This document shows positions 4,131 to 54,533 of a stretch of 64,000 nt of DNA, piece after piece (positions within the stretch are counted from its first letter, which is position 1; each line of letters starts with the position of its first letter). The notes under the pieces are model-generated. The model had not been told where the DNA came from, made no database searches, and saw nothing but the letters and a program-made list of their open reading frames with translations. Source of the DNA: Octopus vulgaris (taxonomy: Eukaryota). The DNA is taken from contig OX597827.1 in assembly GCA_951406725.2 (NCBI GenBank), positions 18,600,001-18,664,000 of the forward strand, written 5' to 3'. A program made the position numbers and the translations under genes.

Positions 4131-4684
4131 GGAGAGAGAGAGAGAGAGAGAGGGAGAAAGAGACGAACTAGTGCACAGAGATGAGAAAGGGAAAGAGAGA
4201 TACAAAAACAAAACTAAAAGAGCTAAAAAAAAAGAGAGAGAGAACGGAAGAGGGAGATCGAGATAGATATAGCAGAGAGAGAGAGAGTCAGAGAGTCAGA
4301 GAGAAAGAGAGGAAAAGAGAAACATAGAAAGATTAAACACACACACACACACACATATACACACCGACAGAGAGATGGGAAAAGACAAATTGAAAAACAA
4401 TATACGTGAGTGAGATAGAGAAAGGAAGAGAGAAAGGAAGAGAGAGAGAGAGACAGAGAGACAGAGAGAGAGAGAATGGGAGACAGAGGGAGAGGGGGAG
4501 ATTAAAAACAAGGCGAGAGAGAGAGACGAAGATTTGTTAGGGTCGTCGTTGATTCTGTTTAGCCCCAGGTCAGCCGGCCTTGTCTGAACAAACCAATTAT
4601 GAAAGGCATCCCAGCAATGAACATTCCGTCTCTATCTATATCTCCATCATCTATGTGTATATGTCTATGAATATGCATCATATA

Positions 4685-4728
<44 letters not shown>

Positions 4729-4974
4729 CACATATATATTCTTTTATTCTTTCATTCTTTTACTTGCTTCAGTCATTTGACTGCTGCCATGCTGGAGCAC
4801 CGACTTTGAAGAATTTTAGTCGAATGAATCAAATCCAATACTTATTCTTTAAAGCCTAGTACTTATTCTATCGGTTACTATTGCCGAACCGTCAAGTTAC
4901 GGGGACGTAAACACACCAAAGGAGGTTGTCAAGCGGTATTGGGGGACAAACACAGATACAGACACACACACACA

Positions 4975-5018
<44 letters not shown>

Positions 5019-5057
5019 AAAAAAGGTTTGAAAATGCAATTTAAACGATGTTTATTT

Positions 5058-5098
5058 ACTTAACCGGTTTCACTCTTTGGTAAAAGATTGTCAAAAGT
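5058..5098 (-). ncRNA. Minimal hammerhead-like motif (U3:A8 core), mirror copy
   Basis: Reverse complement of 8807-8847. Confidence 0.55.
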
Positions 5099-5113
5099 TA
5101 CATTTAAGGAAAC

Positions 5114-5340
5114 ATTGAATAATATGGGTTCAAAAAAGTTTTTTACATAATTGTCACATTGAATATTATGCATTCAAAAAAGTTTTTTACATAATTGTCA
5201 CATTGGATATTATGGGTTCAAAAAAAGTTTTTTACATAATTGTCACATTGAATATTATGCATTCAAAAAAGTTTTTTACATAATTGTCACATTGGATATT
5301 ATGAATTCAAAAATGTTTTTTTATACATAATTGTCACATT
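5114..5340. repeat. About 42-43 bp minisatellite, about 5 copies (mirrored at about 8565-8791)
   Basis: Unit ttg(a/g)atattatg(ca/gg)ttcaaaaaagttttttacataattgtcaca. Confidence 0.9.
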
Positions 5341-6169
5341 ATTTGGGAAAATTTGGCAGAAAAGGATAAAACAAATATATTATTGGGAATTGGTTGCGTT
5401 AATTATTGGTTGTCGCAAATTGTCACATTACATGTATATATATACAATCTTTGGTATATATATACAGCGTTTTGACAGCAAAAATTAAAATGGATTTTTT
5501 GTACATCTCAGAATATTTTAAGTATGTTTTTACTGACCTGTCAGTATTAGCAGAAAGGCTGAACTGAGAGAACAGAAGAAGTAGCCAATGTGGTGTATAC
5601 TTCCCCTTTATGCATGAATGATTTTGGGGTTATCAGGAGGTTAGTATGCGGGTGTGAATAGATGTGTCCGTGCCTGCTGGTCAGACATCATCTGTTTGTC
5701 ACACACATATATATACACACAAACACACACACACACAACAACACACACACACACACACACACATAGCATACAAACACACACCACATACAAACAACACACA
5801 CACACACACACAGAACACACACACCCACACACAACGCACCCACATATATCACATATACACACAGCACACAAATATAACATGTATCTATATATAACATACA
5901 CAGATATATAACACACATACACACACAACACACACACACACACACACACACACAACACACGCACACATACATACATAATATAAATATCACACAAATACAC
6001 CTAGCATATATATACACACATACAATACACACATACAGCATGTAAGTAATATACATACACAATATATGCATGCAATATACATACGCAATACATACATATA
6101 ATATATATATATATATAGACAATGCATATACATATATACACATATACATATAAATAGTGTATACATACA

Positions 6170-6697
6170 CAAGACCCACGCCTGAAAAAAATACTGGCAG
6201 CTCATAAAATAATAAAAAGTAAGAGACAACCTAAATCCCTAAAAAACCTCCTCACCAACGCAAAATTACACAACACAAACCCACCACCCACCATCAAAAA
6301 ATGTGGTCGCCCCAACTGTAAGACCTGCATCCACCTCATTGAGGGATCGTCGTACAAGTTCCACTCGGGACACACATTCATCATAAAAAATAACTTCACG
6401 TGCGCATCAAAAAATTTACTCTACGTCATAAGGTGTGAAGGATGCCACGAAGACTACATAGGGCAAACGAGCCTTACCCTCAGAGACAGAATGACAGTTC
6501 ACCGACAACAACTGAGGGACCCCTCCACAAGACAGATACCACTAAGTGGACACTTAGACCTTTGTGCACACAATAAGTCCCCCAAATTCTTAGTCTTCCC
6601 ACTATACCAATGCTCGGACAACACCACAGACCAAACACGAATAAATAAGGAAAGTAATCTTATTCAAAAATACAGACCACAACTAAACATACTCTAA
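6170..6697 (+). mobile_element. 5'-truncated Penelope-like element (Neptune-type) ORF: Cys-rich linker plus GIY-YIG endonuclease
   Basis: Uninterrupted 175-codon frame: ...KRQPKSLKNLL...CGRPNCKTC...FTCASKNLLYVIRCEGCHEDYIGQTSLTLRDRMTVH...SGHL...KESNLIQKYRPQLNIL*. Shows the LLY..YIG motif, CxxC..H..H and conserved R, E and N. Confidence 0.9.
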
Positions 6698-6882
6698 CAT
6701 ACCCCCTGGAAGCACATCCAGAGCAAGCACACAGGGACGCGCGCACGCTCACAGCATATCGTGCGGGCGGGCACATGCGCGCATCGGCACGCATAGGACA
6801 CACTAGCGGGCATTGACCGCACACATACGTGGCATGCACACGCATGCATTATATATATGTAGGTGATGTATGTGTGTGAGTG

Positions 6883-6920
<38 letters not shown>

Positions 6921-7070
6921 ACTGTGTGCGTGTGTGTGTATATGTGTGTGTGTGTGTGCACGTGTGTATATATGTGTGTGTGTGTGTGCACTGTGTGCGG
7001 GTGTGTGTGTATGTGTGTGTGTGTGTGTGTGAGCATTGTGTACGTGTGTATGTATTTACATATGTATCTG

Positions 7071-7117
<47 letters not shown>

Positions 7118-7740
7118 TGTGTGTGTATATGCATGGTATGTGTGTGTGTGTTGTGTGTGTATATGCATGGTATGTGTGTATATGTTAGTACTTTGTTTGT
7201 GTGTATGTGCGGCATTTAGAGATATATTTGAGTGTGTACGCTATAGGTTTGTAATTTGTGTGTGTGGGTGGTGGTGAATTTTTTATATATATATATATGT
7301 GGGTGTATGTGTGTGAAAAAATATATGTATGTGCATGTGTGTATGTATGTATGTGTGTATATATATATATATGTGTATATATATGTGTGTGTGTGTATGT
7401 GTGTGTGTATATTTATTTGCATGTTTATGTGTGTATAAACATGTACATTATTTGCATGCGCATTGTGTATATGTATATTGTATGTATGTGTATTGTATAT
7501 GTACGTGTACAATTAAGTGTATATATTTGTGTGTATGTGTGCACTGTATATATGTATATTGTAGGTGTGCTATATGTGCATGAATACATGTATATGCATT
7601 GCGTGTATATATATGTATGCATTGTGTGTGTATGTATGTTATGTGTGTGTGTGTGTATATATATATTATATGTATGCGTACGTGTATGTGTATGCATTGT
7701 ATGTATGTGTGTTGTGTGTATATGTGGTACATCTATGTAT

Positions 7741-8894
7741 GTGTATGTATACACTATTTATATGTATATGTGTATATATGTATATGCATTGTCTATATAT
7801 ATATATATTATATGTATGTATTGCGTATGTATATTGCATGCATATATTGTGTATGTATATTACTTACATGCTGTATGTGTGTATTGTATGTGTGTATATA
7901 TATGCTAGGTGTATTTGTGTGGTATTTATATTATGTATGTATGTGTGCGTGTGTTGTGTGTGTGTGTGTGTGTGTGTGTTGTGTGTGTATGTGTGTTATA
8001 TATATGTGTATGTTATATATAGATACATGTTATATTTGTGTGCTGTGTGTATATGTGATATATGTGGGTGCGTTGTGTGTGGGTGTGTGTGTTCTGTGTG
8101 TGTGTGTGTTGTTTGTATGTGGTGTGTGTTTGTATGCTATGTGTGTGTGTGTGTGTGTGTGTGTTGTTGTGTGTGTGTGTGTTTGTGTGTATATATATGT
8201 GTGTGACAAACAGATGATGTCTGACCAGCAGGCACGGACACATCTATTCACACCCGCATACTAACCTCCTGATAACCCCAAAATCATTCATGCATAAAGG
8301 GGAAGTATACACCACATTGGCTACTTCTTCTGTTCTCTCAGTTCAGCCTTTCTGCTAATACTGACAGGTCAGTAAAAACATACTTAAAATATTCTGAGAT
8401 GTACAAAAAATCCATTTTAATTTTTGCTGTCAAAACGCTGTATATATATACCAAAGATTGTATATATATACATGTAATGTGACAATTTGCGACAACCAAT
8501 AATTAACGCAACCAATTCCCAATAATATATTTGTTTTATCCTTTTCTGCCAAATTTTCCCAAATAATGTGACAATTATGTATAAAAAAACATTTTTGAAT
8601 TCATAATATCCAATGTGACAATTATGTAAAAAACTTTTTTGAATGCATAATATTCAATGTGACAATTATGTAAAAAACTTTTTTTGAACCCATAATATCC
8701 AATGTGACAATTATGTAAAAAACTTTTTTGAATGCATAATATTCAATGTGACAATTATGTAAAAAACTTTTTTGAACCCATATTATTCAATGTTTCCTTA
8801 AATGTAACTTTTGACAATCTTTTACCAAAGAGTGAAACCGGTTAAGTAAATAAACATCGTTTAAATTGCATTTTCAAACCTTTTTTCTTATATA
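7741..8894 (+). repeat. Right arm of long inverted repeat (PLE 3' tail)
   Basis: Reverse complement of 5011-6170. Confidence 0.95.
8807..8847 (+). ncRNA. Minimal type-I hammerhead-like motif (U3:A8 core)
   Basis: ACTT-TTGACAA-TCTTT tacc AAAGA gt-GAAA-CCGG-TT-AAGT. Stem I ACTT/AAGT, palindromic stem III. Base of stem II is imperfect. Confidence 0.55.
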
Positions 8895-9019
8895 ATCCCA
8901 CTCGTGCGATACCCCACAACTCAACTTTTTTATATATATATATATATATACTTATGTCATGTAGGATTGCTGAACTGTACGCGTTTTTTAAAAATTCTCT
9001 CTGTTTATTTCTCTTATTC

Positions 9020-9055
9020 CTTTCTGTTGAAGAGCGTAGGCTCGAAATCTAAAAG
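9020..9055 (+). ncRNA. Degenerate hammerhead motif
   Basis: CTTT-CTGtTGA-A-GAGC gtag GCTC-GAAA-tc-TA-AAAG. A6 and stem III are mutated. Same layout as 19182-19218. Confidence 0.45.
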
Positions 9056-9157
9056 ACGTTTTCATTTCTCCAGGGCGTCAAACTACACTTGCTTGTTGTT
9101 CATACACCTGTCTTCGTGTTTTGTTCTTCTATAAATTTGAACTATATATGTGTGTGT

Positions 9158-9193
<36 letters not shown>

Positions 9194-9265
9194 GTGTGCG
9201 CGTGTGTGTGTATTGAAAAAACAGTCGATATAGAAAATGCTAAAATTATTTTATAAAAAAACATT

Positions 9266-9302
9266 TCAGTACCGGTTTCAGTCATTGAGACTTTTTCAAC
9301 TG
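9266..9302 (-). ncRNA. Minimal type-I hammerhead ribozyme, U3:A8 variant, GUA site
   Basis: CAG-TTGAAAA-AGTC tcaat GACT-GAAA-CCGG-TA-CTG. All three stems pair. Confidence 0.7.
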
Positions 9303-9672
9303 TAAGTGTGGAAAAACAATTAAATTTTGGATATATATATATATATATACTAAGAAATGGTGTTATTATCGATGGAATACTATGACATTTCACTAAACCC
9401 TGGAACTTCTAACCTTTATAAGTAGGTTGTAACATCTTTGGCACTTATGTTAATTTTTACACCCCTGGTAACTATTTTTTTCGTGTTATTTGTACACATT
9501 GAAAAAATAAACACACACACACATGTGTATGTATGTATGTATGTATGTATGTATGTATGTATGTATGTATGTATGTATGTATGTATGTATGTATGTATGT
9601 ATGTATGTATACTTTCATTAAAGCAGCAAAGGTTTCCAGTTCGCCGGGCAGCTATGGAGTTTTCATCACAAA

Positions 9673-9831: not shown

Positions 9832-9870
<39 letters not shown>

Positions 9871-10509
9871 CGAGTGTATACGACCAGCTTCTTTCAGCTT
9901 CCGTTTAACAAAATCCACTCACAAGGCTTTCGGGGCTACATCGTAGAAGACACATGCTCCAGGTGCCACGCAGTGGTACTGAACCCGGAACCATCTGGTT
10001 GGGAAGCAAACTTCTTACCACATTATCCAATGTTTCGCTCTCTCTCTCTCTCCCTCTTTCTCTGTCTCCCTCTCTCTGTCACCCACTCTTTCTTTCTCTT
10101 TCTCTCTTTTTGTTGTTCTTTGTTTAGATAAGGTGTGATTTGAGAGAATTCGGTTGCTGTTTTAGTAGGTTAAGCGGCCACGTAGACGCAAGTGTATTTC
10201 TCACCGACTTGGTGGCTGTGGTTGTTGCCTAGCCCCAGGGCTGTGCCAGTTAGAAGAGGGTGGGGTTCAGCTTAGCTAGCACATTGGCCCGGAACCCGTC
10301 GTGATTATCTGTTGGGACACATCCTTAAATAAATAAATAATATAGCAAAGCCCTCCGGAATTTCGAGAGCTCGATCCCCGTTTCTGGGCGGATGAGGGCA
10401 CTCGAGAAGGAAATCGTGTTCGGCTTGCCAAATTTTATTTCGGTATCTCTGGTCCCAAGTCAACACCAATCGGGCCGACATTATAATTAAAGTGCCTAAA
10501 GTTGGTCTT

Positions 10510-19097: not shown

Positions 19098-19181
19098 ATC
19101 CAAACATGAGAACACAAAGAGAAAACATAACAACACGAGGACGTGTTATTGGACGCTCAGGAAAGGAAAGAAAGAATGAGG

Positions 19182-19218
19182 ATGTAACGTTTCGAGCGGA
19201 GCTCTTCGTCAGAAACAT
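19182..19218 (-). ncRNA. Minimal hammerhead motif, canonical core
   Basis: ATGTtt-CTGACGA-A-GAGC tcc GCTC-GAAA-CG-TT-ACAT, with an AACGTT palindrome. Confidence 0.65.
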
Positions 19219-29789: not shown

Positions 29790-30292
29790 ACAACTGGAAA
29801 GAAGACAACTCTTGCATGGAAAATACCCTAACCGCCTGTCCAAGCCAGAAATTGATAAAAATCTAAGACACCAATGGCTAGAAGGGATAGGTCTGAAAGG
29901 GGAAACAGAAGGTTTTGTTATTGCAGCGCAAGATCTGAGCTTACCTATCAGAAACTACCAAGCAAACGTCCTTAAATGTGGATCGGACCCCTCGTGCAGA
30001 AATTGCGGAAAATTTAGAGACAATTGATCATGTTGTTTCTGGCTGCCCAGTCCTCGCTGAAAAAGAGTACCTCATAAGACATGACAGACTAGGGCAGTAC
30101 ATCCACTGGAATGCTTGTAAATACTACAAAATTAAATCCCATGATAAGTGGTGCAGGCACCATCCAGAGGGTGTAGTAAATGGCGAGGGCGTACTCACTC
30201 TTTGCAACTTCCCTGTACAAACAGAAAAATTGACTCCAATCGACCAGACATTGTGTTTAAGGACTACAACAGAGGAACTTGTCTCAAGATAG
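29790..30292 (+). mobile_element. R4/Dong-like (RLE-type) non-LTR retrotransposon fragment, frameshifted
   Basis: LHGKY..WL...LKGETEGFVIAAQD...CRNC..ETIDHVVSGC (CCHC), RHD, NRPDIV. Confidence 0.85.
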
Positions 30293-35664: not shown

Positions 35665-36162
35665 TCATGTTCTAATATATTTCCTGCTGTGGCTGTGTAG
35701 TCCTCTCCTGGACAAACACTCCCTCTAGCAGGTACCGCAAATGTAGCGAAGATTTTGCCTGACTGGTTGTAATGTGATAGTTTCTTGTTGATGTCTTTTC
35801 TTGTCTTTCCATTTCTCCTCTCTCTCTCTGTCACTCCTTCGTGTTCCCTCTTTTACGTTACGTCGCCAATCTCCACGGTTGCTGACAGCTGCCTCCCAGT
35901 TGCTAATATTGATGTTGCAGGCCTTCATGTCCCTTTTGCAAACATCCTTGTAACGTAAGAACGGTTTTCCCACAGACCTAGTGCCCCTAGGCATCAAATG
36001 GCAGAATCATGTCCCCAACAAAGATGTCCTCAAGCAAGCAGGAATACCAAGCATGTTTGCACTCCTCACACAAAGACGCATGAGATGGCTTGGACATGTT
36101 AGCCGTATGAAAGATGGCAGAATCCCCAAGGACATACTCTACGGAGAGCTTGCTAGGGGCAC
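35665..36162 (-). mobile_element. RTE (BovB-like) LINE 3' fragment with inverted 5' segment
   Basis: Plus strand 35987-36162 reads LGIKWQNHVPN...RWLGHVSRMKDGRIPKDILYGELARGT; the protein continues on the minus strand as GTRSVGKPFLRYKDVCKRDMK...YICGTC. Confidence 0.85.
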
Positions 36163-36325
36163 CTCCATAGTAATTCGAATGAAATTTGGTGAGTCCAAAA
36201 TAGGTTGTGTGTGTGTGTGCGTTTGCGTGTTTGTGTATGTGTGTGTGTGTGTAGGGGGTGCGTGCGTGGTTAATAACATTTTGACTCAGTTCCAAGCTAC
36301 CTGAAGTTTCGTAGAAGTAGAACAT

Positions 36326-53809: not shown

Positions 53810-54408
53810 AGTAGTTTTATTTTTATAGCGTGCTTTCACTTCACTACCGAGCGCAGCTCTGTGTGCCTTGGGTATGTGCTGTGATTTGTTGTGATGCTCT
53901 GATGGTTATTGTATGGAAAGTGTTCTGGGTAGGATGTGTGCAGTGCCTAGTAGTGCAATTTTCTGTATGTTATATGTTTGTAAGTCCTGGTGTTTTTGTT
54001 ATGTATTTGTCTGAATATTTTTTTATCATGCCTAATGCACCTACTATGATAGGAATTGTTTCTGTTTTTAGATTCCACATTCTGGTTACCTCTATTTCCA
54101 GGTCTTTGTATTTTGAAAGTTTCTCCATTTCTTTTAGAGACACGTTGTCATCTGCTGGTATTGATACATAAATTAGAAAGCATTTTTTTTCTTCATGATC
54201 TCTGACAACTATATCTGGCCTGTTGGCCTTAATTTCTCTATCTGTGTGTATCGGCATATCCCAGAGTATGGTTGCTTTCTCGTTTTCTGTGACCTTTTCT
54301 GGTGTGTGCCTATACCATCTTTTTTCTGTTGTTATTCCATAATGTTGGCATAGCTTCCAATGTATGTAGGTTCCAACTCTGTCATGTCTGTGAATATATT
54401 CCTTCTTA
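53810..54408 (-). mobile_element. R4/Dong-like non-LTR retrotransposon 3' fragment
   Basis: KKEYIHRHDRVGTYIHW...ILWDMPIHTDREIKANRPDIVV...EKLSKYKDL...PIIVGALG (RLE domain), ending in a TAA-rich tract. Confidence 0.85.
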
Positions 54409-54533
54409 GCCCTGTGCTATGACATTTACTGCTATCCCTAAATGAAGAATAATGAAGAATAATGATTGGAAATTCTCTTAGATAACTGGGAAGAGGATGC
54501 GCCTATGTAGAAGTAGACATCGGTACCGGAAGA

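Follow-up and report, generated by a model that had tools for sequence, protein, structure and literature searches.

A young, inverted Penelope-like element in the Octopus vulgaris genome and the mode of insertion suggested by its relatives

A 64,000-nucleotide stretch of the Octopus vulgaris genome (assembly GCA_951406725.2, contig OX597827.1, positions 18,600,001 to 18,664,000 of the forward strand; hereafter the window, whose coordinates are used throughout) contains a young Neptune-type Penelope-like element (PLE) that is truncated at its 5′-end, lies head-to-head with an inverted partial copy of itself, and sits in a (TA)n tract. Comparison with related loci suggests that this is one recent insertion, the two arms of which probably arose from two reverse transcriptions primed at both ends of a single DNA cut on RNA from a single source copy. 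The identity and youth of the element, its (TA)n target, the fixed end points of its arms, the microsatellite in its 3′ untranslated region (UTR) and the variants common to both arms are directly supported, and it is from these that the mode of insertion is reconstructed. The locus itself is an ordinary, recent and dead PLE insertion, with an architecture already in print in passages of PMC8557442 and PMC3846280.

Results

Identity of the element

The protein-coding remnant of the element is the 5′-truncated end of its second open reading frame (ORF2; 6170–6697, + strand). As the sequence-only reading of this DNA had proposed, the frame at 6170–6694 is stop-free over 175 codons and encodes a C-X4-CxxC linker followed by a GIY-YIG endonuclease, with a Pfam GIY-YIG match above cut-off (E 4e-5). 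The frame was also called intact, which does not hold: it is the last 175 of the 776 codons of a reverse transcriptase–endonuclease (RT-EN) frame (residues 602–776), with no RT, and is therefore a remnant rather than a functional gene. Its base at 6286 differs from that of all 60 other loci compared.

The complete frame is found elsewhere in the genome. At locus L090 the 776-residue frame carries an RVT_1 match (E 6e-8) and a GIY-YIG match on its last 175 residues, so that the family, without the RT in the window copy, has the RT and C-terminal GIY-YIG domain in one frame that define endonuclease-containing (EN+) PLEs. The zinc-finger residues of the nuclease are CCHH, the two cysteines lying between GIY and YIG (YVIRCEGCHEDYIG...H...H, by inspection against the definition given in the text of PMC8557442), and the linker upstream of it, CGRPNCKTC, fits the CX2-5CxxC pattern of Neptune elements. 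By eye, the spacing between linker and nuclease is like that of the Neptune rows, and unlike that of the Nematis rows, in Fig. S2 of PMC8557442. The family also has the pseudo-long terminal repeats (pseudo-LTRs) of PLEs: 15 of the 60 fetched loci show a hammerhead in a direct pseudo-LTR, and there are inverted arms and a 37-bp tail. It shares the Neptune preference for (TA)n targets, since (TA)≥4 follows every one of the 56 outer ends in 28 pairs picked irrespective of the ORF. The Neptune-type label thus refers to the linker, the nuclease residues and the target rather than to a place on an RT tree with named elements. The parent element departs from the canonical single-ORF plan in having two overlapping frames. 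Because the Fig. 1 legend of PMC8557442 allows an optional frameshifted ORF1 for some PLE types, the two frames mark a variant and do not exclude the family from the group.

Arms, boundaries and age of the locus

The two arms (5011–6171 against 8894–7740) match at 1,151 of 1,153 aligned bases, with two substitutions and four indels (98.97% identity by blastn); the indels are of 2–4 bp each and every one falls within a microsatellite run. This self-comparison confirms the foldback with near-identical inverted arms that had been read from the sequence. The left arm (5011–6171, − strand) is an inverted, tail-less partial copy equivalent to unit positions 4668–5779 of a full copy in L062, which is 5,815 bp long and has a direct pseudo-LTR. 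It meets the longer arm at an unstranded head-to-head junction (6170–6171) with 2 nt of microhomology (CA). On the right the element extends further than the sequence-only reading had placed it: rather than ending at 8894 it ends at about 8931, 37 bp further, with a PLE tail (8895–8931, +) that is present on the right arm only and is followed by (TA)n. Just before the tail lies an internal TATATA (8889–8894, +), the end point of all tail-less arms and, we infer, the first of two priming sites. The target tract, to which no strand is assigned, is represented by (TA)n at 4978–5016, overlapping the terminal TATATA of the left arm, and at 8931–8950. That both ends sit in (TA)n explains why no target-site duplication (TSD) is evident.

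One substitution, at 8217 (+) and mirrored at 5688, is private to the locus and present in both arms; its 24-mer occurs only at these two places in the genome assembly. At the octopus rate of 0.0036 per site per million years given in a passage of PMC13282606, should it apply here, two substitutions in 1,153 bases correspond to an age of ~0.24 million years (95% range 0.03–0.87). The true age of the insertion would be lower, because errors of copying and assembly add differences between the arms.

A large and young family

In the 2.8-Gb assembly the 175-residue piece is matched at 100% identity at 63 places, and 150 of 150 scored matches are at least 92% identical; 60 of the matching loci were fetched for comparison. 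One 22-mer from the hammerhead ribozyme motif near the element's end has 710 exact matches, and one from the sequence just 5′ of the microsatellite block has 229. Among the first 100 listed hammerhead ends there are 30 head-to-head pairs, 2 tandem pairs and no tail-to-tail pair. These counts bear out the earlier proposal of a recent PLE insertion with an inverted partial copy at its 5′ truncation. At C2:55956690-55968365, three hammerhead ends stand 5.83 kb apart on one strand, which implies at least two full tandem units and hence copying of more than one unit. Besides this one, the genome holds at least four young two-ORF PLE families whose ORF1 belongs to the same family (L091–L110).

One tail per pair, and variants common to both arms

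In all 28 pairs picked irrespective of the ORF, and in 29 of 30 ORF-selected pairs, the tail is found on one arm and one only (57 of 58 over both sets). Its presence is not tied to the length of the arm. In the 19 measurable pairs of the first set the tail is on the longer arm 10 times and on the shorter 9 times; in the 30 ORF-selected pairs it is on the longer arm in 20, the shorter in 8, one of two equal arms in 1, and both arms in 1. The 34 head-to-head junctions comprise 14 with 1–6 nt of microhomology, 9 that are blunt and 11 with inserted bases.

Sequence variants link the arms of each pair. Across 59 pairs, a variant known also from other loci was shared by the arms in 173 cases and confined to one of them in 8, whereas the two commonest variants would be split between arms 47% and 41% of the time if the arms were drawn independently. 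Private variants were present in both arms 19 times (in 12 pairs, with 7 from the old locus L119) and in one arm 32 times. The shared variant at 8217 is unique genome-wide to the two arms of the window locus, and that of L123 is likewise unique; of the four tested, only these two are private genome-wide. The shared variant of L115 is found at two further places. RNA editing was rejected as the origin of the variants common to both arms, none of the 19 being A>G. In a k-mer nearest-neighbor test, from which L055 was left out, the partner arm ranked first, ties included, at 21 of 31 loci; the same test by raw edit distance is confounded by microsatellite length. The fourth variant tested, common to both arms of L136, is carried in the 3′ UTR of the full-length copy at L049 (L049:1470 region, oriented position 8455) and is absent from that locus's own upstream repeats, which makes the two loci likely to be donor and daughter.

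A minimal hammerhead and a candidate footprint of its cut

Each arm contains a minimal type I hammerhead motif (8807–8847, +, and its mirror at 5058–5098, −), with helix I ACTT/AAGT, a U3..A8 core, the palindromic helix III ACCGGT, and a predicted cut after 8843. The core, TTGACAA...GAAACCGGT, lies at 8811–8842 and in the mirror, and the motif ends 47 bp from 8894, in agreement with the U3:A8 motif that had been reported about 47 bp from the outer end of each arm. An Rfam scan gave no hammerhead match at E ≤ 10 and returned only microsatellite-like microRNA noise, so the assignment rests on inspection and on covariation in sister families: TTGACAA...GAAAC CG GTT fits the consensus core (U/C3-U4-G5-A6-N7-A/G8-A9, G12-A13-A14-A15.1 and a UH triplet), and two sister families have the same core with a different but paired helix I. 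The G10.1-C11.1 pair that closes helix II in the consensus, and that the sister families keep, is replaced by U.U in 164 of 183 fetched ends with the common sequence. Both fixed end points of the arms are downstream of the predicted cut.

Nine of 712 ends lack the G three bases before the cut. Two of these are point changes and two are older altered copies, while at the remaining five (L160, L162, L163, L167 and L168) the junction falls exactly at the predicted cut. The nearby truncation rate (7 in 68 ends over 305 positions) predicts ~0.7 such junctions (P about 0.001, or 0.07 were that rate three times higher). For control, the ends without the adjoining 10 bases further upstream were examined; in the listed part of C1-C2 there are 11, and all proved to be sequence variants with no truncation among them. 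We consider the five junctions a candidate footprint of hammerhead cutting in vivo. In three of the five loci the partner arm extends past the cut, a pattern compatible with a jump or ligation over the cut as well as with priming on the two repeat copies of an RNA longer than one unit. At L163:1480-1555 there is also a 23-bp duplication that restarts at the predicted ribozyme cut, as if the enzyme had stalled and re-primed.

The two-frame parent and its putative slippery site

Among 16 full-length loci, the commonest layout is a 447-residue ORF1 overlapping the 776-codon RT-EN frame, which lies in the −1 frame. Contigs of four runs from four studies cross the ORF1/ORF2 overlap of L090 without gaps or an intron joint. 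A heptamer of the X_XXY_YYZ type, T_TTT_TTA (U_UUU_UUA in RNA), stands in the ORF1 frame of L090 and of 12 clean loci of three sister families. Among 20 sister-family loci (RT ~57% identical), these 12 have the in-frame heptamer with the RT in −1. The heptamer is present in 2 more whose RT frame is disrupted further on, and in 3 it precedes the RT start but ORF1 is disrupted; 1 locus has no RT match, and the remaining 2 have a single frame for ORF1 and RT. We infer from this arrangement that full-length elements make their RT-endonuclease by −1 frameshifting.

ORF1 has 507 relatives at 50% clustering. Among 74 listed relatives of at least 330 residues, 58 have Phe-Leu within the last 35 residues, compared with 7, 8 and 1 in the preceding three windows, a count of residues and not of codons. 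The protein gave no Pfam match above cut-off (for P0001 or 16 relatives) and no PDB sequence match under E 0.01. Its N-terminal part is predicted to be all-helical (predicted local distance difference test score, pLDDT, 78.6), and this model had no Foldseek match at E ≤ 0.001; there was one weak Atlas match at 0.75.

The ribozyme-site junctions and the heptamer could both be read otherwise, the former as stalling of the RT at the paired ACCGGU helix, the palindrome of which adjoins the cut, and the latter, with TTTTTTAG, as a splice acceptor or a stop-restart signal rather than a frameshift site. TTTTTTAG does resemble a 3′ splice site, an ATG overlaps the ORF1 stop in the family of the window element, and no stimulatory structure was found. 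Against this, L168 begins at the exact base of the 3′ cleavage product, preceded by no matching bases; each of the 12 clean sister loci holds the heptamer in the ORF1 frame; and there is no Met near the ORF2 start in the translated starts of two sister families. An intron at the overlap was rejected, since the two putative RNA runs that cross the site show no joint there. We regard this pair of alternatives as unlikely on balance.

A microsatellite-rich 3′ UTR carried by the family

The 3′ UTR of the element spans 2,234 bp including the tail (6698–8931, +). Most of it is an irregular compound TG/TA microsatellite block (6850–8206, +; 1,357 bp, 88% purine-pyrimidine alternation), the length of which ranges from 1,141 to 1,449 bp in 55 other copies measured. 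Closer to the end lies a minisatellite with 5.1 copies of a 44/45-bp unit (8565–8793, +; mirror copy at 5112–5340, −), of period 44 (89 as a dimer) rather than the 42 first given. The block is collinear in 56 of 58 other copies, with a median of 76% of unique 14-mers common after collapse of runs, compared with at most 1.6% for control stretches of the window; of the two others, that of L064 is interrupted and that of L083 is truncated by the limits of the fetched stretch. This upholds the earlier view that the microsatellite-rich UTR is part of the element and is spread ready-made. The block of L064 has a 1.7-kb secondary insertion (oriented 7337–9083) within the element's own microsatellite.

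In two sister families the end of the ORF and the hammerhead are just ~160 and ~750 bp apart; the block is therefore a gain specific to this family, and is likely to be captured host DNA. Spacer capture is described for Pen1_Av in a passage of PMC3846280. The contribution to the genome is small: ~229 whole blocks make ~0.3 Mb of 2.8 Gb, or ~0.01%, to which partial and older copies add more.

How the two arms may have arisen

The reading that best fits these observations would run as follows. The GIY-YIG nuclease would open (TA)n, and the two 3′-ends so exposed would prime on RNA of one donor at fixed TA sites 37 nt apart, one per target strand, namely immediately past the 37-nt tail for one of them and, for the other, at the internal UAUAUA that directly precedes the tail. 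Each complementary DNA (cDNA) would halt at its own random point, and the two would be joined head-to-head by end joining. The hammerhead would cut at least some template RNAs after U17, and the enzyme would be supplied by full-length elements through −1 ribosomal frameshifting out of ORF1. Several observations weigh against this reconstruction. Contigs from public runs skip the repeats at 6100–6160, none listed bridges 6171, and no reads span the junction. The shared variants would look alike whether they came from one RNA or from two of the same donor, or were left by later gene conversion linking the arms or by polishing of the assembly, and L046 has two tails. The donor of the private variant of the window locus is absent from the genome assembly, which, together with the tail on the long arm, means that the window locus also fits folding back of a single cDNA. 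Helix II of the hammerhead has its U.U closing mismatch, and at least 688 of 712 ends run through the cut, so that cutting must be rare or bridged; a large truncation hot spot at the ribozyme was rejected on the same count. The footprint was noticed post hoc in five cases, by a search that misses junctions preceded by G. As for the frameshift, 2 of the 20 sister loci have ORF1 and RT in one frame, and no 3′ stimulatory fold better than shuffles follows the slippery site in any of six families (z −0.47 to +1.03, with a fold model that lacks pseudoknots).

Self-priming, in which a cDNA stops, folds back and uses its own 5′ part as template, making one arm a DNA-templated replica of the other, has been proposed for PLE inversions (Arkhipova et al. 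2013, in a passage of PMC3846280). It would account for the private variants present in both arms (19 in 12 of 59 pairs, and genome-wide unique for the window locus and L123), for the tail on the long arm at the window locus, and for the near-perfect palindrome at L058. A copy cannot gain a tail that its template lacks, however, and the first cDNA must be the longer arm; because it is the shorter arm that bears the tail in 9 of 19 and 8 of 30 pairs, L123 among them, self-priming is refuted as the sole route, and the 11 of 34 junctions with inserted bases and the 9 blunt ones also speak against it. As the explanation of the pattern we consider it improbable. We give still less weight to two independent insertions, or RNAs of two donors, meeting at one (TA)n site with later homogenization of the arms by gene conversion, which is quite improbable even though (TA)n tracts are insertion hot spots, inverted repeats are generally able to convert, and the arms of the two-tailed L046 rank just eighth nearest to each other. 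Against it stand exactly one tail in 57 of 58 pairs and the lack of tail-to-tail pairs among the first 100 listed ends, and the 32 private variants confined to one arm, set against 173 of 181 subfamily variants that are concordant, show that conversion between arms is far from complete. Least credible of all, and barely so, is an artefact of assembly or of reads that fold back. The unspanned junction allows for it, and homopolymer lengths vary among assembled full-length copies, which points to small indel errors in the assembly. The mirror ends exactly at the element's internal TATATA, the two flanks differ and the tail is on one arm only, whereas an artefact would mirror the flanks too, and the same rule is followed at 57 other loci with different truncation points. 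This is strong, if indirect, evidence that the inversion in the window is not an artefact.

Pairing of transcripts and the surroundings of the element

By complementarity, a transcript through the locus would pair over ~1.15 kb. Runs guessed to be RNA hold 77–92% of ORF words, which indicates at most the presence of the family and not of this locus. Of seven sites at which two putative RNA runs depart from L090 as well as from both DNA runs, five are A>G (L090:3564, 3816, 3978, 4593 and 4813); these are absent from the two DNA runs, and two of the sites are common to both studies. They give a weak hint of editing of the element's RNA, and different animals and alleles can also explain them.

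Elsewhere in the window, a second U3:A8 hammerhead at 9263–9303 (−), which has a paired helix II and is close to the hammerhead of sister family C (L095), is what is left, over a short length, of a different PLE within the same microsatellite cluster, and further hammerhead-like motifs lie at 9024–9050 (+, by eye) and 19180–19212 (−, with a canonical C3:G8 core). By eye, a common dispersed repeat seems to have been parted at the microsatellite in its middle, by this insertion and other fragments, into the halves at 4745–4980 and 9860–10030. The translations of the short frames 29939–30289 (+), 35954–36301 (+) and 53973–54416 (−) resemble the ends of proteins of long interspersed nuclear elements (LINEs).

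Discussion

Hundreds of near-identical ends and a polymorphic UTR turn questions of mechanism into counts. Those reported here rule out fold-back as the only route, tie both arms to one donor and give a candidate footprint with an exact bond. A close analogy is the twin priming of L1, in which a single RNA is primed from each of the target strands and microhomology serves to join the resulting cDNAs; there the second primer is internal, and the outcome is an inversion without duplication. In the octopus family the start points are both at the 3′-end, separated by 37 nt, and it is this end that becomes duplicated.

Much of what the element displays is familiar from the Neptune clade of EN+ PLEs as described in passages of PMC8557442 and PMC3846280: the RT with a C-terminal GIY-YIG nuclease bearing CCHH and a CX2-5CxxC linker, 5′ truncation, partial tandems that appear as pseudo-LTRs, an inverted 5′-truncated copy, a 30–40-bp tail at one end only, and a (TA)n preference that hides TSDs. 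The family differs from that clade in its 2.2-kb 3′ UTR with a 1.3-kb compound microsatellite, and in a separate 447-residue ORF1 that overlaps the RT-EN frame in −1, where canonical EN+ PLEs have a single ORF according to text of PMC8557442. The Fig. 1 legend of that paper (Craig et al. 2021) does provide, for some PLE types, an optional coiled-coil ORF1 with a frameshift and pseudoknot. The Fundulus Neptune element repeat.CL27 likewise has an upstream ORF1 without database similarity, but that ORF1 is 420 nt long and does not overlap ORF2, and the text examined (PMC12602865) proposes no frameshift.

The hammerhead resembles the minimal hammerheads of PMC4209133 in its U3-A8 variant, its short helix I and a palindromic helix III suited to dimer folding, and in its position in a terminal repeat with motif pairs on opposite strands. 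It differs from those described in the available text in lacking the conserved G10.1-C11.1 pair of helix II and in the distance between arms, 3.8 kb in the window compared with 100–700 bp. That text states that there is no evidence of cleavage in vivo; here, five genomic junctions fit a cut. Dispersal of microsatellites by retroelements is known from lepidopteran RTE elements (Tay et al. 2010; PMC2887409), in which simple repeats of the 3′ UTR likewise travel with the element and undergo slippage; there the 3′ UTR is very short, whereas the octopus family keeps a 1.3-kb irregular block collinear. The chief practical lesson of the microsatellite cargo is caution when markers are designed and repeats annotated.

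Earlier papers thus already describe the layout, the tail and the U3:A8 hammerhead, and the two ORFs and the microsatellite UTR make the family a new variant. Passages of PMC8557442, PMC3846280 and PMC4209133 leave open the origin of inverted PLE ends and of the one-sided tail, and whether minimal hammerheads cut in vivo. No twin priming, slippery site or cleavage footprint was found for Neptune elements in the literature searched, which covered few subscription papers and no figures or bioRxiv supplements. It is possible, though we hold it only tentatively and think it doubtful in its entirety, that the scars of this family record the full PLE replication cycle. The hammerhead would cut in vivo to give unit-length RNA, the 5′-end of which would carry both TA priming sites; one RNA would be copied from both ends of a (TA)n break, with the cut normally crossed by an end-to-end jump or through a ligated circle; and the enzyme would be made in gag-pol style by a −1 slip from an unclassified helical ORF1 family of at least 500 clusters. 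If this is true, the hypervariable microsatellite UTR would serve as a built-in barcode for tracing donors and their daughters through the octopus genome.

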